Origin: an uncultured Leptospirales bacterium
GTDB taxonomy: Bacteria > Spirochaetota > UBA4802 > UBA5550
Reading direction: 5' to 3'
Length of the DNA: 64,000 nucleotides
NCBI GenBank assembly: GCA_964529415.1
Contig: CAZGWD010000001.1
Coordinates: forward strand, 186,611-250,610
The translations under genes were made by a program, and so were the position numbers. Shown piece after piece: positions 24,722 to 57,200 of the stretch. Below the pieces are notes generated by a model. The model did no database searches. It was not told where the DNA came from and saw only the letters and a list, made by a program, of their open reading frames with translations. Within the stretch, counting starts at the first letter, position 1. Each line of letters opens with the position of its first letter.

Positions 24722-26875
24722 GTGGTTCAGACAGAAATTGTAATTTCAGCTATTGCATTTTTTATAGCTCAGGGTTTGGCCGTTTCCAGCTTAATCAGAA
24801 GAGGCCGGTCTACAATAAACCGCATCTTTGCTGCGTTATCATTTTTTTCATCATTTTTATTTTTAATTCAATTTTTATTACTATTAAATTTAGACTTTAT
24901 ACCAATAACTATAAGCGCAAGAGTTTATTTTGCACTTATACTCTTTCTATCTGAAATATTTTTTCATTTCTTTCAACTATTCCCGGATGATAAAATAAAG
25001 CCAATAATTAAGAGTATAATTATTGCTGCAATCCCGGGTATTATGTTTTCAATTCTTACAGTTTCAACAGATTTGATTATATATAATGTATCTTTTAAAG
25101 GGTTTCTTGATTTTCAGTTTGGATATCTTTTCCCAATTTATATTTGTTTCTTTGCGTCATATATGTTAGGAACACTTATATTAATAATATATAAAATAAA
25201 ATTTAAAATTGAATCAAAAGTATTAAAGATGGAGTTTAAACTTATTTTTTATGATCTTATTATTCTGATTTTACTTCTTGTTTTATTTGTATTTATTTTA
25301 CCTGATATTTTTAAAATTGATGCCTTTAGAAACATAGCAATAACTCTTCCTGGCGTATTTATATTAATTATAATTAACTACTCCACTTATGATATCCGCG
25401 AAATAGACTTTAAAATTTTCAATATTAAATTATCATTCTGGATTTCAATTTTTATTATGTTGTTTGTTCCTGCGTTTTTGAGCATATATTACAGCAATGT
25501 TTTATTTACAAATCCAAATACAGTATTAACTAATATAACAATTATTTCTTTTATTTATATGGTGCTTTTTTATAGATTTGTTAAACCAAAAATTGAGAAT
25601 TTTTTTAAAAGGGATTACATAAAACTAGAAAAAAACTTTGAAATGTTTTTCAATTCTATAAGTCAGCTTACTGTAGCTGATAAACATGGACCTCTTTGGG
25701 AAGAATTTTACACAAAATCAATTGATGATTTCAGGAACATGTTTGAAATTAGCGGCGCTTATTTATTCCTTTCAAATCCAAATGACGGCAAATTCAGATA
25801 TGTGCACGGCATCGGACCGGAAATTGATAAAACTCCAATTGAAATGAAAAGTGTTATTGTTGAAAATTTAAATGTTAATTCACGTGTTCTTGATAAATTT
25901 ATGATTTATACAGACATTGTCTATTCTTTAGATAAAGAAGAATTATTAAAATTTTATCAAAAATATAATATTGAAATTGCAATGCCGTTTTTTCATAAAA
26001 TATCGGGTCTTATTGGATTTCTGATTTTTGGATCTTTACCTGATGACAAACTTTATTCCAAAACATTTATTTCAACTTTAGAGATTTATAGAATTCAGTT
26101 CCAGCGATTGCTGGAAAATGGCCTTTTACTTGAAGAGTTAAGGCTTAACCAGGTTGTGGAGCACGACAAAATGGTTGTTGGAGGAATAAAGAAAAAAATT
26201 CTTCCAAGAGAATTGAACAGCATTGAAGGAATAAAAATCAGTTCTTTTTATATGAATAATTCATCTTATGGCGGTGATTATTACGACAGTATAAAAATTG
26301 GTCTTGATAAAATAGCAATTATTATTTCTGATTCCGCGTATTATGGAGTTGAATCAGCGATTATATCTCTTGAGTTGTTTTCTGCATTTCATTCAAGGCC
26401 CAGAAAAGTTGAGACTCCGGATAAAATATTAAGTGTATTAAACTGGGTACTGACAACATCACGGCTTACAAAAAAATATGCACCGACTTTTCTTATGACA
26501 TACTCTGCAAATGGAGAAATAAATTATTCAAATGCCGGATTTAATCCTCTAATTATTTTTGATGCAGCTGCAAATGAATTTAATTCCTATACAACAAAAG
26601 GCATTCCAATTGGAGTTGATAAAGATTTTAAATATGAGTCTCATGTGGTTAAGGTTGCTCAGGGAAGCATTGGACTTCTGTTCTCAAATGGTTTTTTAAG
26701 CGCTATTAATCCGAATGGGGAAAGCTATTCTATCGAAAAAGTTAAAAGTATTATTAAAAATAACAAGGGTGAAAATGCTTCAATAATTTCCCGGAGAATT
26801 TATCAGGATTTAAGTGACTTTATAAAAGATAAAAAACAGACGAACGATGTGAGCCTGATAATTTTTAAAATATAA
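24722..26875 (+). CDS. 7TM-receptor (7TMR-DISM-like) - PP2C/SpoIIE-family protein-serine phosphatase
   Basis: About 8 N-terminal TM helices, a central GAF-like region, and a C-terminal SYGGDYYDS...IIISDSAYYGVESAI PP2C/SpoIIE signature. GTG start. Confidence 0.6.
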   Translation: MVQTEIVISAIAFFIAQGLAVSSLIRRGRSTINRIFAALSFFSSFLFLIQFLLLLNLDFIPITISARVYFALILFLSEIFFHFFQLFPDDKIKPIIKSIIIAAIPGIMFSILTVSTDLIIYNVSFKGFLDFQFGYLFPIYICFFASYMLGTLILIIYKIKFKIESKVLKMEFKLIFYDLIILILLLVLFVFILPDIFKIDAFRNIAITLPGVFILIIINYSTYDIREIDFKIFNIKLSFWISIFIMLFVPAFLSIYYSNVLFTNPNTVLTNITIISFIYMVLFYRFVKPKIENFFKRDYIKLEKNFEMFFNSISQLTVADKHGPLWEEFYTKSIDDFRNMFEISGAYLFLSNPNDGKFRYVHGIGPEIDKTPIEMKSVIVENLNVNSRVLDKFMIYTDIVYSLDKEELLKFYQKYNIEIAMPFFHKISGLIGFLIFGSLPDDKLYSKTFISTLEIYRIQFQRLLENGLLLEELRLNQVVEHDKMVVGGIKKKILPRELNSIEGIKISSFYMNNSSYGGDYYDSIKIGLDKIAIIISDSAYYGVESAIISLELFSAFHSRPRKVETPDKILSVLNWVLTTSRLTKKYAPTFLMTYSANGEINYSNAGFNPLIIFDAAANEFNSYTTKGIPIGVDKDFKYESHVVKVAQGSIGLLFSNGFLSAINPNGESYSIEKVKSIIKNNKGENASIISRRIYQDLSDFIKDKKQTNDVSLIIFKI

Positions 26876-27979: not shown

Positions 27980-30900
27980 TTAAAAAAGCAGTGTAAAATT
28001 CAATGCTATTTCATAAGAAAAAACTTCTCTGCTTATTCCGGCTGTAAGCCAGCTTCTGTATTGTTCAAGTGCAAATCTGCTTTGAAGACCGCCCTGAATA
28101 TTCTTATGAAGATCCAGAGTCAGTTTCATATTAAATAAATAGGAGTCGTAAGGCTGGGGTGACACGCTCATGCTGTAATCATACCTGTTTATTGCCATGA
28201 TATATTCAAAAGTAAAAATAGGCGAAGCTGTAAGTTTATAAAAATTTGCAAAGAAATTATACAGCCAGTTTACATCCGTTTCAAAAATAAAAGATAATTT
28301 AAAACCCATATCTGTATTTTTAAATAGTGTATTTCCAGGAATATTTTTTGCATAAATAGAGTCCGGCCCTCCATCATCAATTATGAACTCCTTGGAAAAT
28401 CTTTCCTTGTAATCAACTCCTGTTTTTATTCCGATATTGGCTCTTCCCAATTTTATAGAAAAGCCGATCAATGGTGAATGAACTATTTCTTCTATATTTG
28501 TAGTTATAAGCATATTATCTGAGATGGAATAGCCGATATCGAAAACAAGTCCGTGATATGGTTTTCCTATCTGATTCGGCCTGAAAAATGCTCCGGTTGT
28601 GAAAAGTTTCATGAAATCAAAAGTGAAATTAATTCCGTATCTGAATGTTATAACCTGCTGGGAAACACCGAATATATTCAGTCTTTCTGCAACCTGATTT
28701 AATGAAAGCTGTGATACGACTGCTATTTTATCAAAATCGAGAGTGAAATTAAATGAAAAATTATCTATAAGCCTGAGGTTATTATTGTATCCGGTATATT
28801 GAGTTCCGGAAGTATGATTATTAATTGTTCCTGTGATATAATCTCTTCCTGCTGCAGAATTATTTCTGCCAGTGAAAAAATAACCAGGCCAGTATTGGAA
28901 TATATTGAGCGCAGCACCTGCTATAGAATTCAAAGCTCTTGCAATGCCGTATTGTTCATTTCCCTGGGCTGTTTTTTCTCCTTCATAAGGGATATCAGTT
29001 TCATATAGATAAACAGAACGCAGATAGTTGAATGAGAAATTTTTAATGAATTTTGTTTCCGGAATTTTATATAAATTAATTGGTAAAGCAATCTGCGTTG
29101 ACATGTAGCTTCTTGCGTCCTTAACTCTTTTAAATTCCGGTTCAGGCGATGTTGCAAAATTGAAATCCCTGAATCTGTTTTCAAGGTAATTAATATCCAT
29201 TTTATACTGCGGAGAAACGTAATGTGACTGATTAATTCCAATTACAAATCCTGTAAGCATGCTTTTTTCAACGAATCTAAAATCATTTCCTTCATAAGCA
29301 AATGGGAAATGAAAATTACCGTTAACATTTCCTGTTATTTCTGTATTGTTCAGGGACTGCAATGAAACACCATTTACAATTTCTTCGGAAGCAGTAGAAA
29401 AATTAGGCTGTATATAAAATATTTTATTCTGGTAATCAAGATTAATTACTGCAGCAGATTTCTGGCGTTTCTCTGAAACATTTGATGGAAGAAATGTTGT
29501 ATCGCGGGTAATTGTATCTTCTTTGAAAAGCATATTCATATTAAAAACTGCATTAAGTTTACCCCATAAAAAGTTATCAATTTTTTCTATTATAGTAATT
29601 AGTGGGGTATGAATTGAGCTTGTAGCTGTTTTATTTACAAGTGTGCTGTTGATCCGTTCATTTACACTCTGGTTATAGTTATCATTTTTATATGATACTT
29701 TTACTGTTGGAACAGCATTTGTATTAGAGACATAATCAGAAGCAACGAAAATGCTGTTGTATTTTCTTGCTCCTCTTTTCGAATCAATTACTTTTTCATT
29801 AAGGCTGTCTGTTGCAGAATCTTCAATATACATGGCAAACTGTGTGTTCCAATTAGGCAGTATTTTTACAGATGATGTGAGCTCATGATATAGTTCTGAA
29901 ATATCGGAATCTTTTTTACCAATAGTATTGAAATTTGCTCCATAACCTTTGGTTGTATATTTTATTGCAAAATCTGAAAATAAAGGAGTACCGTCTTTTG
30001 TTATAAAGAGAGGTTTGGTTATTTTTAGTTCAGTTTCAACCCAGTGCGCTCCATCTTCAAGTACGTCGGGCTCTGAAGCATAGATGTTATCTATCCAGAG
30101 TTTTCCACTGTGGCCTGCTGCTGAATTATATACAACTGCTTTTATAAATATTATGCGTTTCATATCAGGAAAACCTGTTACTGTTCCTGCAACAGATCCG
30201 GATGATCCGTTTTTCAGTTTCATTTTAATTTCACGCCATGCTCCGTCATTATTCATATTGAATTTATATTCAATAAAATCGCTGTCAGATGAACCTATAA
30301 TGATTCCAATCTGATCACCTGGGGAGGATGTCGGGCGGATATTCAGCCATAAATTGAGAGTATTATAAAATCGCAAATCCATTGTGTTTTGAAATCTTTG
30401 AGTAACTGAAACACTCGTTTGTACAGGGATTGGATTGCTGTTAATAGTGTAAACAAGCTGCAGGGAGCTTTCTGTCTGTTTGGCGAGATCCTGCGAATTT
30501 TTTTCCCCATAAAGCTGCTTGTAAACTTCCGGGTTGGACAAAATAAATGAATTAGCACTGTATTCAACGTCAGAAATATTATTCACAATAGAAACATTTA
30601 ACGTGTCAGCTAGTGCTTTTTGAATATTACTCCATTTCAAAGCAACAAATTTAATGTTGTCTATGTAAAGTTTTCCTGTTGATCCTGCACCGCCTGTTCT
30701 TTTAATATATAGCCTTAGGGACTCAACCTGTTTCATAATTGATTTATCAACTTCATTAGTCAAATCCACAGGTATTACAATTGTTTTCCATTGTGTTGAT
30801 GATGTGATTGTTGAACTTGGAATTGTATAAACACTTTCAAGAGTATCAAGAATCCCGTTTCCGTTCAAGTCCTCGCTGTTTAAAACGCCGTCTCCCATGG

Positions 30901-33664
30901 TTGATGTTGAAAGTCTTGGCCCAGAACCGACTCTTGCTGTAGCATTACTATTGAATCTATATCCGAAGAAATCGTAGCCAACATCTTCGTAATAATTCAA
31001 TGAAGGATCAGAATCGAGCAATCCGTTTCGATTTAGATCTTCAGTACCGAGAATTCCATTCGCATCGGAATCCTCATTTATTTTTCCAAGATCGAAATTG
31101 ATAGTAATATCCGCTGTTCCCTGGTACATGTAAGATACTTCAACATATTGGAGTCCTGAAAAATCAACAGCTGTAGTTGAAAGTTTTCGTGAAGCAACTG
31201 AAACAATAGTTTCCGTACCGCCTTCGTATGAAAAATTCATATCAAAAACAAGAGATCTCTGGGATGCTTCAGGAGTTATATTAAAAGGTACATGTCCTGT
31301 TGCTACATTATACGGTCCGGATTTTATTCTGTAATCCACAGGAATTGCAGAATATCCCGGCCCGAATAAAGTTCCGGGATTAAGTGGATCTCTGTAGAAA
31401 TAATAATTCAGCATTGCTCTGTCCAGATATGAAGAAAGTAATGGCATTGATGCGAGCTGCCATTCTTTTTCTGAAGTTGAAATAGCAATAATTTCATTTG
31501 CTGATTCGAGGTTATCGATCAGCGCTTTTCCGAAAGTATTGAATGTGTTGTAGCTTCGTGCGTATTCGCCGTATGCTTTAAATTCTACTGGAACAGTTCT
31601 GTAATTCGTGCCTGCTATTGCATTTACAACACCTGCCATTTTTCTTTCGTTCAGATCCAGAGAAACATCACCTTCGAATAAAAAAAGCTGATTCGGTGTA
31701 TTTCCTATCATTGGAATGCTTGTTGTTCCGGAAGAATTTGAATACAGAATGCTTCCACCAAAATTAATAGCATCCAGGACTTTATAATCAACACGCACAC
31801 CTCCTATAAAAGACTGGCTCTGGGATAAAAACGGCATGTATTCATATTTAATTTCTATTTTAGTTTCAGGCCCAATTACAGGATTATTCGGATCAAGAAA
31901 CATTAAAAAACCTGAAACATGATCAACCATGTATAAACCCTGGGCGATCTCAATATCATTGACCTTTACCCGTACGCTGTTCGGCAGAAGATTAAAATGT
32001 TTCAGCTGGAAGCTTCGGGCTTCCTTGTAGTAGTCTATTTTAATATTATATCTGGAATACTGATATGCTGATGTTGTCTGATTTTCAGTATATATATACT
32101 GAAAAAAATTTGACGGAAGAACTGTTTTAAAAGGCTCTCTGAGAGTAAACTGTATTAAACCTTTTGAATAATCAATTGTAAACTTGCCCAGTTTCTTTTG
32201 CGCTGTCTGGTCCATGTTCTGGTTTTCATTATAGAATTTAAGGCTGAAGTTGTCTGTTAAAAGCTGTCTGTCTCCAATCTGATAAAAAGACCGTATTTCA
32301 TAAACGTCAAGGTGAACTTTGTGGTCATCGATTACAGATAAACCTTTTGAAGTTGGATTTATATAAATATATGGACTTGTAGCTGTTTTCTCAGTAATTG
32401 AATAATTATATTTTATGAAAACAAATATTTTACCTGAAAACTGTCCACCAGGGTGATCAATATCTCCAGGCGGATATGCTGATGAATCTGTTGTTACTGT
32501 TGAACCGCCGCTTAAAGTATATACAGCAAAGATTTTTGCATTTGCAGGAATATCTCTGATAAATGTTATTACTCCTGTTGTAAAGTTTATTGTATATTCA
32601 GCTCCCTGCATTAATTTTGTATAATGACCCTGGGTATCAACTTTGGATAGCTGAATGGAATTAAGATTCAAATTTGGATTTTGCGGGTCCATATAAAGCT
32701 CAAAACTGTTCGGATCTATGTTCACCTGTGTTAAAGAATATGTATCAGGATTTGATGGATTGGATGTTATAGTAACCGATGTAGCAAATTCACCTTCTAA
32801 TGGAGGAGTTGTTCGAGCATCATACCTTTTAAAAGGCTCAAGCTGATAAAACATTTTTTTAATGTAATTATATTCTGCAAGCTTGTTGCTTCCTGGCGAG
32901 GAATTTCCTCTGAAATATTCAATTTCTGTCTGGCCTTTTGAGACACTTCCAAATGCCTTGATCTGAAGATTGTTTTTCTTTAGTGTTACATCAATACCCA
33001 TTCCCTTTGATGTAGTGTTATCGTAAACTGCATATTTGGAATGATTGAATTTAATGTCAATTTCACCTGCATTTATTTCTCGAATAAGTTCATCATCGCG
33101 AATTGCTTTATATTGAATTAAATATTTATTATCTCTCTTGTTGCTGTCATGATCAATAAATACTGTAAGTCTTTTGCCGATTTTCCCTTCCATGTGAACC
33201 TGCATCTGCTGTTCAGGAAGAAAACCCGGCTGTATCAGTCTTGATACAGGAGCGTCCGTATCATATTGCTTGTATTTCTCGTTTGTAAAAACAGATCCTC
33301 CGTATTTCAGATTCAGTTTCATATTTCCGTAAGATAACAGCTGGAACTCCTCATCTGAATCAATTAGAATAGTTTTTTTTTGTTCATCGGAAAGCTTGCC
33401 GTATTCTGGATAATTAATATATTTCTGCCAGTCTCCGGTTTTATATCCGAATGATTGAGCTGAGTTTTTGAATGCAAGTGTTCCTGTTGAAATTTCGGAG
33501 GATTTTTCAGGGTCTATTATTTTTGTTTCTTCTGTGAGCTTGTGCGCGTTTATATAATCAAGAACTTTATCCCGATAAGGTTTTTCATCAGGTGCGCTCA
33601 ATGCAATTATTGCCGCTGCTGATAGCGGTAATGTCAGGAAATATATCCAGGAGTATTTAAGCAT
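27980..33664 (-). CDS. giant outer-membrane beta-barrel protein, SprA-like (candidate T9SS translocon)
   Basis: 1894 aa with a signal peptide and a beta-rich, N/T/S/Y-rich composition. The C-terminal strand ends in ...NFTLLF. Size and architecture match the SprA/Sov family; no alignment was possible here. Confidence 0.4.
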   Translation of the reverse strand: MLKYSWIYFLTLPLSAAAIIALSAPDEKPYRDKVLDYINAHKLTEETKIIDPEKSSEISTGTLAFKNSAQSFGYKTGDWQKYINYPEYGKLSDEQKKTILIDSDEEFQLLSYGNMKLNLKYGGSVFTNEKYKQYDTDAPVSRLIQPGFLPEQQMQVHMEGKIGKRLTVFIDHDSNKRDNKYLIQYKAIRDDELIREINAGEIDIKFNHSKYAVYDNTTSKGMGIDVTLKKNNLQIKAFGSVSKGQTEIEYFRGNSSPGSNKLAEYNYIKKMFYQLEPFKRYDARTTPPLEGEFATSVTITSNPSNPDTYSLTQVNIDPNSFELYMDPQNPNLNLNSIQLSKVDTQGHYTKLMQGAEYTINFTTGVITFIRDIPANAKIFAVYTLSGGSTVTTDSSAYPPGDIDHPGGQFSGKIFVFIKYNYSITEKTATSPYIYINPTSKGLSVIDDHKVHLDVYEIRSFYQIGDRQLLTDNFSLKFYNENQNMDQTAQKKLGKFTIDYSKGLIQFTLREPFKTVLPSNFFQYIYTENQTTSAYQYSRYNIKIDYYKEARSFQLKHFNLLPNSVRVKVNDIEIAQGLYMVDHVSGFLMFLDPNNPVIGPETKIEIKYEYMPFLSQSQSFIGGVRVDYKVLDAINFGGSILYSNSSGTTSIPMIGNTPNQLFLFEGDVSLDLNERKMAGVVNAIAGTNYRTVPVEFKAYGEYARSYNTFNTFGKALIDNLESANEIIAISTSEKEWQLASMPLLSSYLDRAMLNYYFYRDPLNPGTLFGPGYSAIPVDYRIKSGPYNVATGHVPFNITPEASQRSLVFDMNFSYEGGTETIVSVASRKLSTTAVDFSGLQYVEVSYMYQGTADITINFDLGKINEDSDANGILGTEDLNRNGLLDSDPSLNYYEDVGYDFFGYRFNSNATARVGSGPRLSTSTMGDGVLNSEDLNGNGILDTLESVYTIPSSTITSSTQWKTIVIPVDLTNEVDKSIMKQVESLRLYIKRTGGAGSTGKLYIDNIKFVALKWSNIQKALADTLNVSIVNNISDVEYSANSFILSNPEVYKQLYGEKNSQDLAKQTESSLQLVYTINSNPIPVQTSVSVTQRFQNTMDLRFYNTLNLWLNIRPTSSPGDQIGIIIGSSDSDFIEYKFNMNNDGAWREIKMKLKNGSSGSVAGTVTGFPDMKRIIFIKAVVYNSAAGHSGKLWIDNIYASEPDVLEDGAHWVETELKITKPLFITKDGTPLFSDFAIKYTTKGYGANFNTIGKKDSDISELYHELTSSVKILPNWNTQFAMYIEDSATDSLNEKVIDSKRGARKYNSIFVASDYVSNTNAVPTVKVSYKNDNYNQSVNERINSTLVNKTATSSIHTPLITIIEKIDNFLWGKLNAVFNMNMLFKEDTITRDTTFLPSNVSEKRQKSAAVINLDYQNKIFYIQPNFSTASEEIVNGVSLQSLNNTEITGNVNGNFHFPFAYEGNDFRFVEKSMLTGFVIGINQSHYVSPQYKMDINYLENRFRDFNFATSPEPEFKRVKDARSYMSTQIALPINLYKIPETKFIKNFSFNYLRSVYLYETDIPYEGEKTAQGNEQYGIARALNSIAGAALNIFQYWPGYFFTGRNNSAAGRDYITGTINNHTSGTQYTGYNNNLRLIDNFSFNFTLDFDKIAVVSQLSLNQVAERLNIFGVSQQVITFRYGINFTFDFMKLFTTGAFFRPNQIGKPYHGLVFDIGYSISDNMLITTNIEEIVHSPLIGFSIKLGRANIGIKTGVDYKERFSKEFIIDDGGPDSIYAKNIPGNTLFKNTDMGFKLSFIFETDVNWLYNFFANFYKLTASPIFTFEYIMAINRYDYSMSVSPQPYDSYLFNMKLTLDLHKNIQGGLQSRFALEQYRSWLTAGISREVFSYEIALNFTLLF

Positions 33665-37291: not shown

Positions 37292-37999
37292 ATGAAACAT
37301 ACTGATAATAATATACTGCAGAAAATAACTATATTACTGATGCTTCTTATTTTACCTGTATTGATTTCTGCTGAGGATTATCAGTATCAGTATTTTAATA
37401 ATGAAAAGGATGAAAGCCAGTACCTTCCATTCTCAGATTATATTGCTCGAAACAGGCTTCATAATGATACAGTTCCTCACTTTCTTGAAGATTTTTATGT
37501 TCTGTACGGTCTTAAACAATATTATAATGAGAATACGTTAAGGAAAAATATATCATATTTGCAGGCTGCTCTGAAAAGCAATTTCAGATTCCCTTCGAAA
37601 GCACTTGTTAAAATTAACTCAGATAAAGAATATCACAAATATAGAAATCTTATGTATATGCATATAAATCTTTTGATAATGAGAAGCCATATGACAATAG
37701 CTTCGAAATATGACAGGATAGAAGTAAAATTTTATGATCCTGTTTTTTCAAAACAAATAAATGAAAGCATGGACATTGCTGAAAAATATTATAAGGAAGC
37801 TCTGCCTTTCTGGAAAGAAGCTCAGAAATATTCCAAAGAAGCAGGCAAAATTAAAATTACAACGGATCTAAGTTTTATGGAATCTGAAAGATTTTCAATT
37901 AATAACGGTTCTCTCGATTTTGAAAAAATAATTAACACTCACCTTAAAAAGATTGAAAAGAAACGCAGAAAGCTTTCATCGTCAACTGCAGCTAAATAA
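37292..37999 (+). CDS. hypothetical secreted protein
   Basis: 235 aa with a signal peptide and a Lys-rich C-terminus. Confidence 0.4.
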   Translation: MKHTDNNILQKITILLMLLILPVLISAEDYQYQYFNNEKDESQYLPFSDYIARNRLHNDTVPHFLEDFYVLYGLKQYYNENTLRKNISYLQAALKSNFRFPSKALVKINSDKEYHKYRNLMYMHINLLIMRSHMTIASKYDRIEVKFYDPVFSKQINESMDIAEKYYKEALPFWKEAQKYSKEAGKIKITTDLSFMESERFSINNGSLDFEKIINTHLKKIEKKRRKLSSSTAAK

Positions 38000-38082
38000 A
38001 ATAATAAAAAGTAATTGCAATAACCCTGCATATAATCTATATTTAAAATAAATTAAGTATAATTTAGAATGGTAAGCTATTG

Positions 38083-38271
38083 ATGGAAAATTTGAAGTTA
38101 GGCGAATATCTTGTAAAAGGCGGTTCTATTTCTGAATGGCAGCTTGATTTAGCATTAAAAAAGCAGGCAAAAGACGGCGGTCTTCTTGGTGAAATTTTAA
38201 TTAGCCTTGGATATATTCATGACGAGCAATTAATTAAAGCTCTCAGGAGTCAGGCTGAAGATAGATTATAA
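38083..38271 (+). CDS. minimal stand-alone MshEN (T2SSE_N) motif protein; putative cyclic-di-GMP binding mini-protein
   Basis: 62 aa. KLGEYLVKGGSISEWQLDLALKKQ, then the 5-aa spacer AKDGG, then LLGEILISLGYIHDEQLIKALRSQ. This is two exact-length 24-residue MshEN motifs with the canonical 5-residue spacer. Confidence 0.5.
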   Translation: MENLKLGEYLVKGGSISEWQLDLALKKQAKDGGLLGEILISLGYIHDEQLIKALRSQAEDRL

Positions 38272-38284
38272 AATAGAGGTTTAC

Positions 38285-38863
38285 ATGAATAAAAAATTTG
38301 CAATTATAATAATTTTTTTAATGTTTATTCCAGTTGTTCTTTCTGCTCAGGAGTTTAAACCTGTATCAATAGGAATAAATGTAACAGCAGGCGGAAGATA
38401 CGATAATGTGAGAATGTGCGTGGCTACAGGCGGAGTATCTGGAGGCCCGGTAGCTGATATCATGCTTAATACAAGATTCAGCCCATCAAATGATTTTTCT
38501 TTTGTTCTTAATTTTCCGATTTTTCGCCCTATTCTTTTCGCATCTGCATTCAGCATGCTTCAGTTTGAACCTCAATTAACATTTGAATTCAGAACAAAAA
38601 TTTCTGAAAAATTATTTTTTGTCGGAGGACCGGGTCTTGGAGTAAGTTTAAACTACGGGCCAGACTATCATTCGAGCTTTAATTCAAGAGGCATGCCGTT
38701 TTTTTCTGCAGGGCCTATAATCAGTTCACTTTTTGGTTTGGGATTTTATGCAGGAAAAACTTATATGGTAACAGGATTAAGAATTTTTGCAATTCCACTT
38801 TTTTCCGATACTCTATCAGGGGTAGTTCTCGGCGGAGCTATTGATGTAAGTTTTTATTTTTAA
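38285..38863 (+). CDS. putative small outer-membrane beta-barrel/exported protein
   Basis: Signal peptide, Gly/Phe-rich beta-strand pattern, terminal SFYF. Confidence 0.4.
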   Translation: MNKKFAIIIIFLMFIPVVLSAQEFKPVSIGINVTAGGRYDNVRMCVATGGVSGGPVADIMLNTRFSPSNDFSFVLNFPIFRPILFASAFSMLQFEPQLTFEFRTKISEKLFFVGGPGLGVSLNYGPDYHSSFNSRGMPFFSAGPIISSLFGLGFYAGKTYMVTGLRIFAIPLFSDTLSGVVLGGAIDVSFYF

Positions 38864-38906: not shown

Positions 38907-39818
38907 TTATTTAGTTCCTGTAATATTTAATAAGTAACTATAAAATTCATTTTCAGAATTTATTATTCTGTTCAATACCTCAGATGGATAAACCGTTTCA
39001 ATTTTAATATCCGCAAGAGTTTTTTTTATTATTTCTGAAGCTTTGTTTTTATCAAAAGTATTGAGTAATCCCAAATCAATTATTCCCATTTCCTTTTGTA
39101 CTATTTTTGTAAGAATCCCGTGATATTCTGTTGGATTAATTGTCATTGGAACAGTTCTGCAGGCAAATCCCTCATAAATGGTCAGCCCGAAATGAGAAAC
39201 TATAATTTTCGATCTTAGAATTGCTTCTGAATATTCCAGGTTGAATTTTTTCTTTTCTCCATTTTGAAATAGGAATGATTCATTTCCTGAAAGAACAGCG
39301 TAAGTTGAATTAGCAGGGAAAAGATTTGTAATCAATGAGACATAATTCGAATCGGGTTTATAGCCTGTATAAAATGCAATATCAATATCTTTATTATAAA
39401 TGTGATTGGGCTGCAGTGATTTTATAGATTCAGAAAAGTTATAACCGAATATAAATTTATTTATATCATGAGTATTTGTTTGCGGATCCGGAAGGATGCT
39501 GATTTTAAAATCAGCATATACTGCACCTTCTCCAAGATCATCAATTACAAGAACAGGAGCTGTTTTTTTTAATTCTTCAATCTGATCCTGAGAAGAATCA
39601 CGCATATCTCTTATTAAAAATTTTGTGTCTGGATGAATATCATTTATGATGATATCATCAAATTCTCTGTAACCTTCGATGAATGTTTTCTGATTAATAA
39701 TGTATGCTTTAAAATCTTTTTTTGAATTGATTAAACTGGCGAGTGCCATCATTCTTTGAATATGCCCAGAGCCGATAGAAGCGCTCCAATGCGTGATAAT
39801 TGATATTACTTTACACAT
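38907..39818 (-). CDS. PseG/SpsG-like UDP-sugar hydrolase/glycosyltransferase (GT28 C-terminal fold)
   Basis: N-terminal SIGSGHIQRMMALASLI matches the PseG GxGHxxR motif. 303 aa. Overlaps the upstream cytidylyltransferase gene by 8 nt. Confidence 0.5.
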   Translation of the reverse strand: MCKVISIITHWSASIGSGHIQRMMALASLINSKKDFKAYIINQKTFIEGYREFDDIIINDIHPDTKFLIRDMRDSSQDQIEELKKTAPVLVIDDLGEGAVYADFKISILPDPQTNTHDINKFIFGYNFSESIKSLQPNHIYNKDIDIAFYTGYKPDSNYVSLITNLFPANSTYAVLSGNESFLFQNGEKKKFNLEYSEAILRSKIIVSHFGLTIYEGFACRTVPMTINPTEYHGILTKIVQKEMGIIDLGLLNTFDKNKASEIIKKTLADIKIETVYPSEVLNRIINSENEFYSYLLNITGTK

Positions 39819-40554
39819 ATGTTGAGTGTGTCATTCCACGTTGTTTTATTCCGGTGTTAATTTTTATAAGTTCAGGATTTTTCTCGAGGAAGCTGATAAC
39901 TGTTTCAAGGGAAAAGTTTTTGCCTTTATATAAGGCTTCATAAATTTTTGAAGCAAGGGAGTAGTCTTCTTTCGTATCAACAGTTAAGCGAAGATTTTCA
40001 AACGGATTTTCAAACGTAGCCGGGTGTCTTTCAATATTAAAAAGTTCAGGATGCTCTTTAATGTATGGAGTTACGTGTTCAAAATGGTATCCTTCGTGGC
40101 TCATGGCAAAAGCATCATCCAGAGCTGATTTTTTAATAATTTCTACTGCAGTACCTATTGGAATTTTTACTAAAGATGAAAGATCCGCACCTGATTCAAC
40201 TGCAATTTCAAGAGCCATTGATGCATATGTTGGATCTGTGAAAGGGTTGTCGCCTGTAATTCGTACAATATAATCTGACCCGTGTTTATCTGAAGCAAGT
40301 TTATATCTTTCAAGAACATTGTTTTCAGAGCCTCTGAATACAGAAATTCCGCATTCAGCAGCAATCAATTCCAGCGGATCATTTATTTTAGATTCTCCGG
40401 TTGCAAGAACTACAGCAGAAATATTTTCAATTTCCTTTGCTCTTTCAATGATATGCCATATTAAAGGTTTGCCTGCAAGAGGAAGTAAAGACTTGCCAGG
40501 AAGTCTTTCAGAGCTCATTCTTGCCTGGATTATAGCTGTTGCTTTTATTTTCAT
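39811..40554 (-). CDS. acylneuraminate cytidylyltransferase-family protein (SpsF/PseF-like, CTP_transf_3)
   Basis: AIIQARMSSERLPGKSLLPLAGKPLIWHIIERAK is the canonical SpsF/CMP-sugar synthetase N-terminus. Confidence 0.7.
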   Translation of the reverse strand: MKIKATAIIQARMSSERLPGKSLLPLAGKPLIWHIIERAKEIENISAVVLATGESKINDPLELIAAECGISVFRGSENNVLERYKLASDKHGSDYIVRITGDNPFTDPTYASMALEIAVESGADLSSLVKIPIGTAVEIIKKSALDDAFAMSHEGYHFEHVTPYIKEHPELFNIERHPATFENPFENLRLTVDTKEDYSLASKIYEALYKGKNFSLETVISFLEKNPELIKINTGIKQRGMTHSTYV

Positions 40555-40570
40555 TTTTCTTATTTAAAAA

Positions 40571-42073
40571 TCAGTAATTAAAGGTGTACCATTCATCACA
40601 AGATTTGCAATCAGGTTTTACTGAAAATTTCCCTGAATAATCGGAAATAAACGCATTTTTTCCTTTTTCCCATAAATCAGAAACAGATTCTGAATTAATA
40701 TTTCCTCTTGCTGATTTTCCGTCAACATCCTGTTTGCAGAAACAAACTGATCCGTCTGATATAATATACATGTCTCTTTGAAGATGCCAGCAGGGAACTC
40801 TATCTACAGGAGAAAGATCAGAATATCTTCTGTCATCAATTGAACCGGAATATATATTTTGTTTCTGAAGAATTATTTTTACTTTATTTTTTTCAAGCAA
40901 GTCATAATACTTATCTATAATTGGTTTAGTTTCATTGATTTTCATGATTTGAGTATATAGATTCGGGGATATTTTTTCAGAATTATTTAATTCTATAATA
41001 TTTTTAAATACTACTTCGAAAAAGTCGTTGCTGTGTATTTTTGAATAGCTGTCTTTATCAAGACCGTTGAAATTTATTATAGTAGTGATTTTTCCTGCTC
41101 CTTTTTCCTCAAGAAAAGAGAGGTAATTTGAATCAGCTTTTATTCCATTTGTCTCAACAATTATTCTTTCAACAGAAGAATTTTCCAATGCAGTTTGTGC
41201 AATTTTATAAAAATCCGGATTATATAAAGGCTCGCCTGATCCGCCAAAACAGATTGTGTATGGCAGTTTAAATTTTTCCATTTCTGAAATTATTTTTTTA
41301 AATGTTGATAAAGGCATATCAGCATGATTTTTTTCCAGTGTATTCCTGTAGCAGAAAATGCAGTCAAGATCACAGTTTCCAGTTATTTCTATTTCAAGAT
41401 ATGATGGTCCTATGTATAAAATATCTGGATGTTTTTCAATAATAGGTTTAATTTCAGAATAAGCAGGAATTGATTCTGTAAGAGAAATAATATTCTCCAT
41501 AATTTTTTTATCACGCGGATTTGAACAGCGGAATGAAATTCTTTTATCTCTTATATCCGGCTCTTTATAATAAAGTTCAACATCGAACTGGTTTATGTTT
41601 GATTTAATAATTTTTCCAAGCTGAAGTGTTTTTTCATTTGTATGAGGCAGCAGCTTGATTAAATCGGCTGAAAAAATTTCACATGCCAGACCTTCAGGAA
41701 GATTATCGGAGTAGGTGAATTCAGCAAGATATTCCAGGTGAATAGAAATCATTTCTTCAATAATTGAAATATCAAAAAAAGGAGAATCTGCATATAATTT
41801 TACAATATTTCCGGATTTGGTTTTAGAAAATATATTCTTCCAGAAATCCACTCCGTCATTACCTTCTCTGATTATAACATTTTCAAATTGAGAGAACTTC
41901 TCAGATACAGAAGGCGGAACAGAGAAAAAAATTTTATTAATCAGTTTTGAATCTTTAAGTTTATTGAAAAGCAAATCGGGAATAAAATTTTTATTAATAT
42001 ATAAATGATCAATATCTGATCCGGCTGAATGCGCATCAGCAAATATCAGAATATCTGTATTTATTTCACTCAA
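40571..42073 (-). CDS. radical SAM/SPASM-domain enzyme with about 210-aa uncharacterised N-terminal domain
   Basis: CDLDCIFC radical SAM cluster motif. C-terminal 7-Cys SPASM region (CWHLQ...CFCKQD...CKSCDEW). Confidence 0.75.
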   Translation of the reverse strand: MSEINTDILIFADAHSAGSDIDHLYINKNFIPDLLFNKLKDSKLINKIFFSVPPSVSEKFSQFENVIIREGNDGVDFWKNIFSKTKSGNIVKLYADSPFFDISIIEEMISIHLEYLAEFTYSDNLPEGLACEIFSADLIKLLPHTNEKTLQLGKIIKSNINQFDVELYYKEPDIRDKRISFRCSNPRDKKIMENIISLTESIPAYSEIKPIIEKHPDILYIGPSYLEIEITGNCDLDCIFCYRNTLEKNHADMPLSTFKKIISEMEKFKLPYTICFGGSGEPLYNPDFYKIAQTALENSSVERIIVETNGIKADSNYLSFLEEKGAGKITTIINFNGLDKDSYSKIHSNDFFEVVFKNIIELNNSEKISPNLYTQIMKINETKPIIDKYYDLLEKNKVKIILQKQNIYSGSIDDRRYSDLSPVDRVPCWHLQRDMYIISDGSVCFCKQDVDGKSARGNINSESVSDLWEKGKNAFISDYSGKFSVKPDCKSCDEWYTFNY

Positions 42074-50532: not shown

Positions 50533-50883
50533 TCAATGCATTTCAAAAAATTCTATTTCGAGATTTGAATCTAATTCTTTAAAATCCTCCAAGCTGAAAA
50601 CCTGCCAGTGTATATGTTTAGATGCATGTATTATTAGCTTTTTGCTGATATCTCTCATTTTAATGATAAATAGACCGAATGAAGCTATACCTGAACTGTT
50701 TAAAATTGTAAGATTCCTGATGTCAAGAATCACAGGGTCTTTAAGTGTAATGCATGAATCCAGCAGAATTTCAATAATTTCATTGTATTTAGCTACAGTT
50801 TGTAATTTCAATTCACCGCTTATTACAATTTTATTTTCTTCAGGTATGCTATTTATTGTGTATAGAGAATCAGAAGTGTTCAT
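50533..50883 (-). CDS. STAS-domain anti-sigma factor antagonist (SpoIIAA/RsbV-like)
   Basis: 116 aa. ILNSSGIASF contains the conserved phosphorylatable Ser context of STAS domains. Confidence 0.65.
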   Translation of the reverse strand: MNTSDSLYTINSIPEENKIVISGELKLQTVAKYNEIIEILLDSCITLKDPVILDIRNLTILNSSGIASFGLFIIKMRDISKKLIIHASKHIHWQVFSLEDFKELDSNLEIEFFEMH

Positions 50884-51238: not shown

Positions 51239-52852
51239 TTATATATTTTTAATAATTCTTTTTAAATCGTTTAATGTGTATGGTTTGGCTATTACTTCTT
51301 TAAAACCGTATTCTTTGAAATTAGCCATAACCGGATCATTTGAATATCCGCTGCTGACTATTACTTTAATATCAGGATAAATTTTAACTACATCTTTTAA
51401 AACTTCTTTACCGCCAATTCCTCCCGGTATTGTTAAATCAAAAATTGCAAAATCAAAGCACTGGTTTGCTTCTTTATTCTTTTGGCAAATTGTAATTGCT
51501 TCCATGCCATTTTTTGCTGTAACAACAGAAAATCCGATCTTTTCAAGCATGCGGGATGTTACTGATAAAATGCTTTCTTCATCATCCATTAAAAGAACAA
51601 TTCCCTTCTGGTCGTCATCAATAGAAATTAGATCTACATCATCAAGCTCATCATAAGTGTCTGATGCTGGAAGAAAAATTGAAAATATTGTTCCCTTTCC
51701 CTGGATTGATTCAGCAGTAATATGACCTTCGTGCTTTTTTATTATTGAATAAACGCTTGTTAAACCAAGACCCTGCCCAACGGATTTTGTTGTAAAATAC
51801 GGATCAAAAATTTTATTCATTATTTCATCTGGAATGCCAAGTCCATTGTCGCGGATAGAAATTTTAACATATTTTCCTTTCTTTAAAAACGGCAGATTGG
51901 CAACACGTTCCATGGAAATATTGTCTGCAATTAATTCAATATTACCGCCGTATGGCATTGCCTGTTTTGCATTTAGAACTATATTGCTTATAACCTGGTG
52001 AAGCTGCCCTTCATCGACTTCAACCGGCCAGAGTTCATTATCTATGATGTATATGCATTTAAGATTTGAACCTGAAAGAGCAAGATTTACAGCTTCGTGC
52101 AAAAGATTTTCAATTTTCATTGATTTTTTTATCGGAGCTCCGCCTTTGGAAAAGGTGAGCAGCTGATTGGTCAGATTTTTTGCGCGGATTGATGCTTTTT
52201 CTGCTCCTTCAAGCAGTATGAACAATTCTTTTTTATCTTCAAAACTTAATTTTGCGAGAGAAATGTTTCCGAGAATTGCATTTAGTATATTATTAAAATC
52301 GTGAGCTATGCCTCCTGCGAAAAGGCCTACGGACTCGAGCTTTTTGATTTTAAGAAATTCCTCCTCAAGGTTTTCTTTTTCTGTTACATCCAGCATCTGC
52401 CCTATTATCAGAATATTTCCCTGGGCATTTTTTATCAGTGATGAATTCAGTTTGATATTTCTAAGCTCGCCTTCTTTTCTGACGATTTTAAATATGAGAT
52501 GAACAGGCTGATCATTTATTAAAAGTTCTTTAAGCGAATCCATAACGGTTTCTGAATCTTTTTTATCAATAAAATCTGTAAATTTGCGGCTGATAATTTT
52601 ATTATGAGGATATTGCAGTATTCCGCAGAGCTCTTTATTCGCATAAACAACCTGAAAAGAGCTGTTTGCAAGAAAAATTCCATCGTGAGAGTTATCCACG
52701 ACAGATTTGAAAAGGTTTTCCGATTCTATGAGAAGCGCGTCATAACTGCCGGAGAATTTTTTCTCCTCTTCAATATCTTTTATTCTGTTTTCGAGGAATA
52801 AAATTTTATCCTGCAGCTTTTTTAAATCATCATTCATTCTTTTCCATTCCAT
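51239..52852 (-). CDS. hybrid sensor histidine kinase / response regulator (PAS-HisKA-HATPase-REC)
   Basis: N-terminal coiled coil and PAS region. H-box FAGGIAHDFNNIL. HATPase_c G-boxes. C-terminal receiver (VLLMDDEE...FDLTIPGG...K). Confidence 0.8.
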   Translation of the reverse strand: MEWKRMNDDLKKLQDKILFLENRIKDIEEEKKFSGSYDALLIESENLFKSVVDNSHDGIFLANSSFQVVYANKELCGILQYPHNKIISRKFTDFIDKKDSETVMDSLKELLINDQPVHLIFKIVRKEGELRNIKLNSSLIKNAQGNILIIGQMLDVTEKENLEEEFLKIKKLESVGLFAGGIAHDFNNILNAILGNISLAKLSFEDKKELFILLEGAEKASIRAKNLTNQLLTFSKGGAPIKKSMKIENLLHEAVNLALSGSNLKCIYIIDNELWPVEVDEGQLHQVISNIVLNAKQAMPYGGNIELIADNISMERVANLPFLKKGKYVKISIRDNGLGIPDEIMNKIFDPYFTTKSVGQGLGLTSVYSIIKKHEGHITAESIQGKGTIFSIFLPASDTYDELDDVDLISIDDDQKGIVLLMDDEESILSVTSRMLEKIGFSVVTAKNGMEAITICQKNKEANQCFDFAIFDLTIPGGIGGKEVLKDVVKIYPDIKVIVSSGYSNDPVMANFKEYGFKEVIAKPYTLNDLKRIIKNI

Positions 52853-54281: not shown

Positions 54282-54488
54282 TTGATGTGACATATTCCTG
54301 CCGATTTTTTATTCTAAATCTTTATAAAAATATCTTTACAATATTAAAATAGCCTAAAAGCATTTACATATAATCAAATAAAGCAGTAAACACCCGCTGC
54401 GGTGAGTATTTTATTTTTTGGTTACAAAAATATTTTATCATCATTTAAGCAGAAACTGAAATTAAATTACACTTTATGGAGAACTATT

Positions 54489-57200
54489 ATGGCAAATCTT
54501 AAAAGAGTCTATTCTTTCGGAGCAGGAAAATCAGATGGCAAAGCTGATATGAAAAACCTCCTGGGGGGAAAAGGCGCAAATCTTGCTGAAATGTCAAATC
54601 TTGGTATACCGGTTCCGGCGGGTTTCACTATAACCACAGAAGTTTGTACGGAATTTTACGAAAACGGAAGAAAATTTCCAGATGCACTTGAAGCGGAAGT
54701 AAACAAGGCAATGAAGCAGGTTGAAGAAACTATGGGCGCAAAATTCGGCGATCCGTCAAATCCTCTTCTTCTTTCAGTTCGATCAGGCGCGAGAGCATCA
54801 ATGCCCGGAATGATGGACACAATTTTAAATCTTGGCCTTAATGATGATACTATCAAAGGAATAATTGCAAAATCCGGAAATGAAAGATTCGGATGGGATT
54901 CATACAGACGTTTTGTACAGATGTACGGAGATGTTGTTCTTGGGCTTAAACCTGAAGATAAAAATGAAATAGATCCGTTTGAAAAAATAATGGAAGAACT
55001 GAAACATGAGAAAGGGGTTAAGCTGGATCTTGAACTTACAGTTGAAGATTTAAAAGAACTTGTAAAAAGATTCAAGGCGATAATTAAAAAAACCCTCAAT
55101 ATAGATTTTCCATCAGATCCCAAGCAGCAGCTCTGGGGCGCTGTGGGAGCCGTATTCGGATCATGGCAGAATGACAGGGCAATACTCTACAGAAAAATGA
55201 ACCAGGTTGATGACAGCTGGGGAACAGCAGTTAATGTACAGGCAATGGTTTTCGGCAATATGGGAGATGATTGCGCAACAGGTGTTGCATTTACAAGGGA
55301 CCCTGCCACAGGAGAAAATGCATTTTACGGTGAGTATCTGGTTAATGCTCAGGGTGAGGATGTTGTAGCAGGAATCAGGACTCCTCAGCAGGTCACTATT
55401 GCCGGTTCAAAAAAATGGGCTGTAAGCAATTCAGTTTCAGAAGATGACAGGAAAACCAAGTTCCAGTCTCTTGAAGAATATATGCCTGGAGCTTATGGCG
55501 ATCTTGTTAAAATTTACAAAAATCTTGAAAAGCATTATACAGACATGCAGGATATAGAATTTACAATTCAGAATAAAAAACTCTGGATGCTTCAGACAAG
55601 AAACGGGAAAAGAACTGCTGCAGCTGCAGTCAGAATTGCTGTTGAAATGGTTAAAGAAGGATTGATCGATAAAAAGAAAGCTATTCTCAGAGTTGATCCG
55701 AATGCTCTTGATCAGCTTCTCCATCCTACTTTCGATCCATCAGCAGAAAAGAAAGTTATAGCAAAGGGCCTTCCTGCTTCTCCTGGAGCAGCAACAGGTA
55801 AAATTGTTTTTAATGCAGATGATGCAGATGAGTGGACAAACAGAGGCGAGAAAGTAATTCTTGTGCGTATTGAAACATCTCCTGAAGATTTGAAAGGAAT
55901 GTCTGCTGCTCAGGGAATTCTTACTCAAAGAGGCGGAATGACTTCTCACGCAGCTGTTGTTGCAAGAGGCATGGGAAAATGCTGCGTTTCCGGATGCGGC
56001 GAGCTTGAAATATCATACTCAAAACGGGAAATAAAAGTTAAAGATATAGTTTTAAAAGAAGGCGATTACATTTCACTGAACGGTTCTACAGGTGAGGTGA
56101 TGATGGGTCAGGTTAAAACCATGGAAGCTGTGCTTTCAGGCGATTTTGAAACATTAATGAAATGGTCTGATGAAGTTAAAAAGCTTGTTGTGCGGACAAA
56201 CGCAGACACTCCGAAAGACGCTCAGATTGCAAGAAACTTCGGCGCTCAGGGAATTGGTCTTTGCAGAACAGAGCATATGTTTTTCGAGGGAGATAGAATC
56301 AAGGCTATGAGAGAAATGATTCTTGCTGATACTCTTGAAGAAAGACAGAAAGCGCTGAAAAAGCTTCTTCCGATTCAAAGAGACGATTTCTACGGCATAC
56401 TCAAGGCAATGGAAGGCTACGGAGTTACTATCAGGCTGCTCGATCCTCCGCTGCATGAATTCCTTCCTCATGAGGAAGCCAACCAGAAAGAGATGTCCCA
56501 GGAACTTGGAATTTCAGTTGAAAGAATTAAATCTAAAGTTGAAGCACTTCATGAATTCAATCCGATGCTCGGTCACAGGGGATGCAGGCTTGGAATAACT
56601 TTTCCTGAAATAACTGAAATGCAGGCAAGAGCAATTTTTGAAGCAGCATGCCAGCTTAAGAAAGAAGGCGTTGATGCCAAGCCTGAGGTAATGGTTCCTC
56701 TTGTCGGTACAGTTAAAGAACTTTCAATGCAGAAAGAAATAATAGTAAGAACAGCAGATCTTGTAATGAAGGAAACTGGAATTAAAATTGAATACCATGT
56801 TGGTACAATGATAGAAGTTCCAAGAGCAGCAGTTACAGCAGATGAGATTGCAAAGGAAGCGGAATTTTTCTCTTTCGGAACAAATGACCTGACTCAGATG
56901 ACTTTCGGCTACAGCAGGGACGATTCAGGTTCATTCCTTCCATTTTATGTAGATAAAAAAATTCTTCCAAACGATCCTTTCAGGGTTCTTGACAGAGAAG
57001 GCGTTGGCCAGCTGATTAAGATGGCTGTTGAAAAAGGACGCTCTGTTAAAAAAGATCTGAAAATAGGAATCTGCGGCGAGCATGGAGGAGAACCAAGCTC
57101 AGTTGAATTCTGTCATATGTGCGGTCTTAATTATGTCAGCTGTTCTCCATTCAGAGTTCCAATTGCAAGACTTGCTGCAGCTCAGGCTGCGTGCAGATAA
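54489..57200 (+). CDS. ppdK: pyruvate, phosphate dikinase
   Basis: [35 protein letters not shown] is the canonical PPDK N-terminus. Phospho-His region [13 protein letters not shown]. 903 aa from the ATG at 54489; the track's 54402 start is an upstream in-frame extension. Confidence 0.9.

Follow-up and report, generated by a model that had tools for sequence, protein, structure and literature searches.

A 62-residue free-standing MshEN_N protein of uncultured Leptospirales, a likely single-domain cyclic di-GMP receptor

Introduction

The cyclic di-GMP (c-di-GMP)-binding motif of the MshEN domain, the fold that it adopts and the ability of its N-terminal subdomain (MshEN_N) to bind the nucleotide autonomously are already established (PMC5013675; PMC11731258). 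Here we describe a gene whose product is little more than this subdomain. It lies at 38083..38271 on the forward strand of a 64-kb stretch of DNA from an uncultured Leptospirales bacterium (contig CAZGWD010000001.1, positions 186,611 to 250,610; hereafter the window), and encodes a protein of 62 amino acids (aa) that, judging from its sequence and its modelled structure, is likely to be a natural single-domain, free-standing c-di-GMP receptor. We refer to it and to its free-standing relatives of about 60 aa as minis.

The closest described counterparts are laboratory truncations of large ATPases. The fragment VcMshEN_N 1-62 of Vibrio cholerae MshE (VcMshE; structure 5HTL), which alone binds c-di-GMP with a dissociation constant (KD) of 0.35 uM (PMC5013675), has the size of the mini, its motif of two 24-residue halves separated by five residues (24+5+24) and its four-helix bundle. 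However, it is naturally the start of a pilus ATPase of more than 500 aa, in which MshEN_C follows, it carries Arg at position 1 of both half-motifs where the mini has K5 and L34, and its surface is basic, whereas the mini is mildly acidic (10 D/E against 8 K/R by residue count). The best match in both sequence and structure is the N-subdomain of the GSPII-B domain of Thermus thermophilus PilF (PilF159-221; structures 8PDK and 8PKZ), which alone binds c-di-GMP with a KD of 54 nM (PMC11731258) and, like the mini, has an arginine-free K/L pair at position 1 and Glu at position 4. In contrast to the mini, GSPII-B belongs to a 900-aa ATPase with three GSPII domains in tandem, is one residue shorter in half-motif II, and gains about 9-fold in affinity from D266/R268 of its C-subdomain, a contact that the mini lacks.

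Proteins built of MshEN-type modules only, with neither an ATPase nor a glycosyltransferase, have also been described, namely the (MshEN_N)2 protein cce_1044 of Cyanothece and the MshEN-xT2SSE_N1 protein PA3740 of Pseudomonas aeruginosa, the latter linked to swarming motility and counted among the experimentally supported c-di-GMP binders (Wang et al. 2016, PMC5013675). These differ from the mini in having two modules, or a module and a divergent second subdomain, over ~120-150+ aa; the architecture table of that study does not list a single-copy N-subdomain protein. By analogy of role only, the mini recalls the single-domain PilZ proteins, small free-standing receptors that lack an output domain and act in trans on partner proteins (PMC11250160); structurally these are unrelated beta-barrels of about 100 or more residues with RxxxR and D/NxSxxG motifs. 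A search of the literature turned up no natural single-domain MshEN_N protein that has been characterised, and none is mentioned in reviews or in the 2026 Leptospira census (PMC12943098). The mini is thus the natural counterpart of the laboratory truncations and an architectural extension of a known receptor domain.

The gene and its motif

The coding sequence runs from an ATG at 38083 to a TAA at 38269-38271 (62 codons; product MENLKLGEYLVKGGSISEWQLDLALKKQAKDGGLLGEILISLGYIHDEQLIKALRSQAEDRL), and the identical protein is a called but unnamed gene of the source assembly, on an NCBI contig of 330,587 bp. An in-frame TTG at 38080 would lengthen the product by one residue; the relatives, all of 62 aa, begin with ME or MD. 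Half-motif I comprises residues 5-28 (KLGEYLVKGGSISEWQLDLALKKQ; 38095..38166, helices 1-2), aligned to VcMshE 9-32 and PilF 167-190, and half-motif II residues 34-57 (LLGEILISLGYIHDEQLIKALRSQ; 38182..38253, helices 3-4), aligned to VcMshE 38-61 and PilF 196-218, with the five-residue spacer AKDGG (residues 29-33; 38167..38181) between them. The protein closes with a short acidic tail, AEDRL (residues 58-62; 38254..38268), recognised when 59 minis were compared column by column with 68 full-length relatives. An initial annotation, made from the sequence alone, had described a 62-aa open reading frame (ORF) with 24 + 5 + 24 repeats (53 residues), and its account is accurate down to the peptides that it quoted.

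By hidden Markov model (HMM) match, key residues and predicted fold, the mini is a member of the MshEN_N motif family. The NCBIfam model NF053729 ('c-di-GMP_motif', MshE-related) scores it at 62.4 bits (E = 2.4e-17), where the curated cutoff is 38, in a gap-free alignment that spans profile positions 1-53 of 53. In a phmmer search against all PDB chains it retrieves T. thermophilus PilF with E = 9.7e-13, the best stretch being GSPII-B residues 164-218, and V. cholerae MshE (5HTL) with E = 3.1e-7. Such likeness to the MshE motif, as measured on sequence, is far beyond chance. The positions that define each half-motif (L2, G3, L17, L21 and Q24, plus the turn Gly at position 10) are all present in half-motif I (L6, G7, L21, L25 and Q28, with turn G14) and in half-motif II (L35, G36, L50, L54 and Q57, with turn G43). 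Core positions 6, 7 and 12 are hydrophobic in both halves (L10, V11 and I16; L39, I40 and I45), and position 1 is occupied by K5 and L34, which lie outside the strict 'R' of 2016 and inside the extended R/K/L consensus.

The initial annotation had also proposed an HMM search with the MshEN/T2SSE_N model, and here the outcome was divided. NF053729 matches well above its cutoff; Pfam PF05157 (T2SSE_N/MshEN) itself gives no match to the mini at E <= 1 and matches none of the 59 minis at E <= 0.01. This is not a refutation, because PF05157 models the entire domain, that is, the N-subdomain together with a C-subdomain of three beta-strands flanked by helices, and the mini corresponds to the N-subdomain only, which the motif-specific model matches strongly. 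The mini is accordingly not a complete MshEN/T2SSE_N domain, nor is it a secretion ATPase: its 62 aa hold no T2SSE ATPase domain, and the next ORF encodes a signal-peptide protein with no ATPase match. It has no Pfam match to PilZ, and its predicted fold is all-helical.

Another small Pfam family, DUF2949 (PF11165; a 56-position profile), aligns to the mini over profile positions 3-50 with 23.5 bits (E = 7.9e-5), just under the gathering threshold of 24.2 bits, and gives weak sub-threshold matches in 19 of the 59 minis. The mini is probably a distant relative of DUF2949 on these scores, and DUF2949, which consists of small cyanobacterial proteins of unknown function, may itself be a diverged MshEN_N-like module. 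PHROGs and PADLOC returned no match for the mini or its two neighbours, and thus nothing to suggest that they derive from a phage or a defence system.

Predicted fold and ligand site

AlphaFold2, run with the alignment of minis, predicts a four-helix bundle (helices at residues 6-12, 18-31, 35-41 and 47-61) with a mean predicted local distance difference test score (pLDDT) of 95.1 and a predicted TM-score (pTM) of 0.80. Searched against the PDB with Foldseek, this model superposes on chain B of c-di-GMP-bound MshE (5htl_B) with a query TM-score (TMq) of 0.85 and a root-mean-square deviation (rmsd) of 0.9 Å over 56 columns at 43% identity, and on c-di-GMP complexes of PilF GSPII-B with TMq 0.82-0.85 and rmsd 0.7 Å at 46% identity. 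These complexes rank at the top, and beneath them only ligand-free PilB N-termini are credible. The structure prediction that the initial annotation had suggested thus gives a confident bundle that superposes on the c-di-GMP-bound forms of MshE and PilF at 0.7-0.9 Å.

Ligand contacts were mapped by residue-by-residue alignment, with the roles of the residues taken from PMC5013675 and PMC11731258. In half-motif I the mini corresponds to VcMshE as K5=R9, L6=L10, G7=G11, E8=D12, G14=G18, L21=L25, L25=L29 and Q28=Q32, and in half-motif II as L34=R38, L35=L39, G36=G40, G43=G47, L50=L54, L54=L58 and Q57=Q61. Every ligand-contacting position is kept in this alignment to VcMshE and PilF, K5 and L34 being as in PilF. 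Published mutants show which of these positions matter: in VcMshE, changes of the leucines and glycines cost more than 10-fold in affinity or abolish binding, and changes of charged residues shift it by at most about 5-fold (Wang et al. 2016, PMC5013675), while in PilF the double change Q190E+Q218E abolishes binding (PMC11731258). The homologue XpsE, which does not bind, deviates at G11, L29, R38, G40, L54, L58 and Q61 (PMC5013675); of these positions the mini is changed solely at R38, which is L34.

The change at position 1 is one that PilF shares, since K5/L34 is the same arginine-free pair as K167/L196 of PilF GSPII-B, which binds with a KD of 6 nM and whose reversion to Arg weakens binding 25-fold and 4-fold (PMC11731258). 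The authors of that study widened the consensus to (R/K/L)LG… and suggested that a non-Arg residue in position 1 predicts very high affinity (Neissner et al. 2024, PMC11731258). Given the conserved site and the modelled fold, we consider it likely that the mini binds c-di-GMP. Since N-subdomains of 62-63 residues, taken alone, have KD values of 54-350 nM, the mini would be expected to bind the nucleotide 1:1 with a KD of tens to hundreds of nM.

From the crystal and nuclear magnetic resonance (NMR) work on MshE and PilF, one extended c-di-GMP molecule would lie across the four-helix bundle. On the side of guanine 1, K5 would stack opposite a first leucine cluster of L21/L25/L35, and on that of guanine 2, L34 would stack opposite a second cluster of L6/L50/L54; the Hoogsteen edges would be read by the backbone amides of G7-E8 and G36-E37 together with Q28 and Q57.

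Outside the cellular proteins, an MshEN_N-like fold is also seen in the BFVD entry A0A516LYM6, an unnamed viral protein of 90 aa (TMq 0.80, 31% identity, Foldseek probability 1.00). A sequence-pattern search of a collection of viral contigs yielded no relatives.

A family of free-standing minis under purifying selection

A first, word-based search recovered five relatives of 62 aa at 67-95% identity, and a genome scan with a second search added more at 62-79%, bringing the total to at least 10 relatives of this length; those that are named come from metagenome-assembled genomes (MAGs) of uncultured Leptospirales. The ratio of non-synonymous to synonymous substitution rates (dN/dS) is 0.094 between the mini of the window and its ortholog in L001 (8.5 synonymous and 3.5 non-synonymous differences), and 0.035 between two other relatives, L002 and L004. 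The mini is a real gene under purifying selection. An intact ORF in relatives had been put forward initially as a check on the gene, and it is borne out by this constancy of length and by the selection.

The reach of the family extends well beyond these close relatives. A profile search of 1.84 billion cluster representatives gave 5,242 proteins with the motif, mostly multi-domain or multi-repeat, and among the best 150 of them several are only 57-71 aa long. A second search with the alignment of minis recovered more than 35 clusters of single-copy proteins of 56-71 aa at E < 1e-20. Many of these clusters are found on contigs of 100-760 kb, and hence are not truncated ORFs. Wherever they carry a label it is 'hypothetical protein'. 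Among the named ones most belong to Spirochaetota MAGs, and a few come from Omnitrophica, a MAG labelled Bacteroidales and unclassified bacteria. As delineated by sequence, then, the minis are an unnamed and unannotated family of ~60-aa proteins centred on Spirochaetota.

NF053729 matches all 59 aligned minis at E <= 1e-5, and their conserved columns coincide with the positions of the published motif that contact the ligand or form turns. G7, L25, Q28, G36 and L39 are invariant, L10, G14, L21, A24, G32, G43 and L54 are conserved in at least 90%, and Q57 in 93%; the G32/G33 pair of the spacer is conserved in at least 90% of the minis and in 97% of the full-length relatives. Within the Leptospirales clade Y9, W19, D22, D47, A58 and E59 are also invariant, beyond the ligand site. 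Comparison of the 59 minis with the 68 full-length relatives brought out no convincing mini-specific conserved surface residues except the acidic tail.

Full-length relatives and origin

A metagenome scan placed the minis among relatives of other architectures. The 80 loci recovered include five clear minis and two more whose ORF is extendable upstream; 45 are free-standing proteins of ~146-150 aa (for example L018, L020, L022-L026 and L029) with a complete MshEN domain of both subdomains and an intact c-di-GMP motif, and 30 are longer proteins, including PilB/GspE-like ATPases of ~570 aa and a recurring class of ~250 aa that begins MAQIKLGELLIKANVLQESQLK. No characterised MshEN protein of ~146-150 or ~250 aa was met, no literature search having been aimed at either class. 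The initial statement that the motif is normally part of secretion ATPases of 500 aa or larger is therefore too narrow, as free-standing MshEN proteins of ~149 aa are common in metagenomes and many other fusions are known.

The ~146-150-aa proteins are the closest full-length relatives of the mini, with which they share 45-55% identity over the motif, the free-standing state and a GG(L/K)(L/I)GEIL signature. They differ in keeping MshEN_C (…QYGFPYLPL…VARQY), whereas the mini stops five residues after Q57. Minis and full-length relatives conserve the same columns and diverge only after Q57, where the acidic tail of the minis stands in the place of the 'YGFPYLPL' linker into MshEN_C. This confinement of the divergence suggests an origin by loss of the C-subdomain, and the minis probably arose in this way from free-standing MshEN proteins of ~149 aa.

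Genomic contexts

Upstream of the mini lies a gene for a 235-aa protein with an N-terminal hydrophobic segment (37292..37999, +), and downstream, 13 nt after the stop codon, one for a 192-aa exported protein of unknown function (38285..38863, +); both fall outside the receptor itself. The initial annotation had taken the flanking products to be exported, which agrees with the signal-peptide-like hydrophobic segments at both N-termini; the downstream protein ends in ...VSFYF. Neither neighbour has a family match in Pfam, NCBIfam, PHROGs or PADLOC. The 83-nt intergenic region upstream of the mini (38000..38082, +) is AT-rich, in a window of 33.6% G+C, and is a possible promoter and ribosome-binding region with sigma-70-like matches at 38015-38043 and 38042-38070; a promoter and terminator scan, however, did no better than on shuffled sequence, the region having 11 such matches against 9.2 +/- 3.2 after shuffling. 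The ribosome-binding region of the mini is weak and a strong promoter was not seen. No terminator was found between the mini and the downstream gene, and the two are probably co-transcribed, in this clade only.

The initial annotation had pointed to the three-gene neighbourhood as something that might be conserved, and this is so only at close range. The trio recurs in L001 and L096, where the mini is 95% and 75% identical, respectively, and the neighbours 82-92%; the 235-aa protein has an ortholog in both (82% identical in L096) and is absent from the other contexts of minis. At 64-67% identity of the mini the neighbours have been replaced, and it sits between purA and the methionine aminopeptidase gene. 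In other clades the mini adjoins a ceramidase-like gene, follows a radical-SAM cluster and precedes a HAMP-cyclase gene, or lies between genes for an IclR regulator and an arginine decarboxylase. In all, the minis occupy at least six unrelated gene contexts, and the 192-aa gene does not adjoin the minis of other clades. Clustering by blastp of 93 neighbouring ORFs from 14 loci with minis revealed no family common across clades: families are shared within close lineages, apart from an M23 peptidase encoded 2-3 kb upstream of the mini in the two Leptospirales clades, an arrangement that speaks for orthology accompanied by local rearrangement. As the trio is clade-specific and the contexts vary, no partner of the mini and no functional link to its exported neighbours can be inferred.

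The downstream 192-aa protein belongs to a large uncharacterised family, with 557 matches at E <= 1e-3 to exported 'hypothetical proteins' of ~190-205 aa (relatives P0265-P0384 and L093-L095) from Aminicenantes, Chitinivibrionales, Fibrobacterota and other phyla, which share the conserved stretch GGRYDNxRMCV…GGPxADxM. Going by its sequence, it may be a small outer-membrane beta-barrel. Three distant members have no mini nearby or upstream; a 52-aa upstream ORF in L094 is unrelated. In L002 the contig upstream of the mini (positions 1-110) starts with what looks like the 3' terminus of a structured RNA (…GGTTCGAATCCCC…); a GC-rich hairpin and a run of T come next. Neither a tRNA nor a tmRNA was called there by ARAGORN, probably because the RNA gene is cut by the contig end.

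Mode of action and competing explanations

The motif HMM, the predicted structure and the intact, selected ORF in relatives all favour what was initially suggested, a free-standing mini-receptor for c-di-GMP. Several points weigh against this reading. Position 11 of half-motif I, for which the consensus is L/V/I/F, is S15, in a column that varies across minis (in half-motif II it is Y44), although the model is confident at this position (pLDDT 98-99). The Foldseek E-values are no better than ~4e-3, which reflects the shortness of the query. The aspartate contact from MshEN_C is absent, and its removal in PilF cost about 9-fold in affinity. More generally, c-di-GMP binding by natural minis, likely as it is, is predicted by analogy with truncated fragments of other proteins.

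The surrounding DNA adds a further reservation. A Pfam scan of 36 ORFs of the window detected no GGDEF, EAL, HD-GYP or PilZ domain, and a regular-expression search for such motifs in all its ORFs of at least 90 aa was likewise empty, in agreement with the initial remark that the window has no GGDEF/EAL gene. The window contains no second MshEN protein, and Rfam at gathering thresholds finds nothing in it, hence no c-di-GMP riboswitch. With no cyclase, phosphodiesterase or riboswitch in the 64 kb, c-di-GMP signalling in this organism is assumed from its Leptospira relatives (PMC12943098). In L. interrogans the receptor inventory reports a single MshEN protein, and GspE carries its own MshEN domain (PMC12943098). 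Finally, neither a conserved partner gene (14 loci) nor a mini-specific surface patch beyond the ligand site was found, which would fit a nucleotide buffer equally well.

Lacking an output domain, the mini must act in trans. We prefer, with somewhat less than half of our overall weight, a ligand-dependent adaptor analogous to the single-domain PilZ proteins, in which the exposed face of the bound nucleotide and the surface of the bundle would together form a composite site for a partner protein encoded elsewhere than beside the mini. The authors of the PilF study have similarly raised the possibility that bound c-di-GMP forms part of a composite interaction surface (PMC11731258). Yet a buffer or sponge, which would bind the nucleotide tightly with no partner, lower the free pool and so set a threshold or delay for other receptors, is the main alternative, given that no neighbour is conserved across the at least six contexts and no surface beyond the ligand site. 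The absence of an output domain and the high affinity predicted from the K/L pair at position 1 are in keeping with it, and it has been noted for PilF that abundant high-affinity binders could lower free c-di-GMP (PMC11731258). We nonetheless regard it as rather unlikely: it would need amounts of protein comparable to the nucleotide pool, for which the weak ribosome-binding region and the want of a strong promoter give no sign; purifying selection in the Leptospirales clade also acts on the non-ligand positions Y9, W19, D22, D47, A58 and E59; and bacteria normally tune this pool with cyclases and phosphodiesterases. Both adaptor and buffer are kept here as candidate modes of action.

A special case of the adaptor, in which the mini would serve in trans an MshEN_C-only protein or an N-truncated GspE/PilB-type ATPase, seems improbable. 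Its nearest full-length relatives are indeed proteins with both MshEN subdomains and PilB/GspE-like ATPases, and the C-subdomain of PilF touches the ligand and changes its orientation when c-di-GMP binds (PMC11731258); but no such partner lies near the mini in any context, and the GspE of L. interrogans already has an MshEN domain (PMC12943098). Still less credible is a three-gene module in which the mini would couple c-di-GMP to envelope or outer-membrane functions together with its 235-aa and 192-aa neighbours. The 13-nt gap with no terminator before the downstream gene and the retention of the trio in L001 and L096 speak for it, although the latter synteny carries little information, these being close relatives. 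The module is largely refuted by the purA/methionine aminopeptidase context at 64-67% identity and four further contexts in other clades, by the three distant 192-aa family members that have no upstream mini, and by the unlikelihood of contact between a cytoplasmic protein and a signal-peptide protein. We attach a comparably slim chance to the fold being used for another ligand, such as 3'3'-cyclic GMP-AMP (cGAMP), or for none: VcMshEN binds cGAMP weakly (PMC5013675, legend of Fig. 1h) and S15 is off consensus, but both half-sites retain all the guanine-specific elements, including Q28 and Q57, and the degenerate changes of XpsE (G3, L17/L21, Q24) are all absent from the mini. That the gene is a spurious ORF or the leftover N-terminus of a decayed GspE/PilB/MshEN gene might be read from its length, which equals that of the N-subdomain, and from its end, which coincides with the start of the linker to MshEN_C. 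This has a negligible probability, and is ruled out by the selection and distribution data: dN/dS is 0.03-0.09, the length stays within 56-71 aa across more than 35 clusters of differing lineage and context, the sequence after the gene shows no resemblance to MshEN_C or an ATPase, and the family-specific acidic tail is conserved.

Implications

In c-di-GMP signalling networks, synthases and hydrolases usually far outnumber the recognised receptors, censuses of which rely on PilZ and on the Pfam MshEN models. Since the minis are invisible to Pfam (0 of 59) and labelled 'hypothetical', receptor inventories of spirochaetes may be undercounted in lineages related to L. interrogans. We tentatively raise the possibility, less likely in our view than the receptor assignment itself, that MshEN_N-only proteins of ~60 aa are a distinct natural class that acts in trans, either recruiting lineage-specific partners through a composite surface or setting a threshold of free c-di-GMP. 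Were this so, they would correspond, on the MshEN side, to the single-domain PilZ adaptors and would rank with the smallest protein receptors of c-di-GMP, a class concentrated in Spirochaetota, with nanomolar arginine-free binding, that Pfam-based censuses have missed. A natural single-domain binder of 62 residues, probably of high affinity, would represent its receptor class in minimal form. It would offer a clean system in which to study how a receptor that lacks an output domain transmits its signal, and a scaffold ready for use in small, genetically encoded sensors or sponges of c-di-GMP. The gain would be architectural and ecological; it introduces no new principle and overturns nothing.

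Other genes in the window

Signalling genes elsewhere in the window encode a 717-aa membrane SpoIIE-type phosphatase (24722-26875, +) and a PAS-HisKA-HATPase-REC hybrid kinase (51239-52852, -), next to which lies a 116-aa ORF with no family match (50533-50883, -); none of them is related to c-di-GMP. Just beyond the 192-aa gene, a three-gene sugar-nucleotide cluster (38907-42073, -) resembles those for synthesis of nonulosonic acids of the pseudaminic/legionaminic type. Its genes encode a 303-aa protein whose N-terminus is weakly PseG-like (24 bits), a CTP_transf_3 cytidylyltransferase, and a 500-aa radical-SAM/SPASM protein in which the N-terminal region weakly resembles a cytidylyltransferase. 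For a 1,894-aa ORF (27980-33664, -), which has a hydrophobic segment at its N-terminus, Pfam gives nothing at E <= 0.001, and its 1,892-aa ortholog in L001 is likewise unannotated. Lastly, the pyruvate kinase encoded at 10071-11816 (+) has an extra C-terminal mobile domain of phosphoenolpyruvate (PEP)-utilisers (PF00391, residues 503-574), and a separate pyruvate phosphate dikinase is encoded at 54402-57200.

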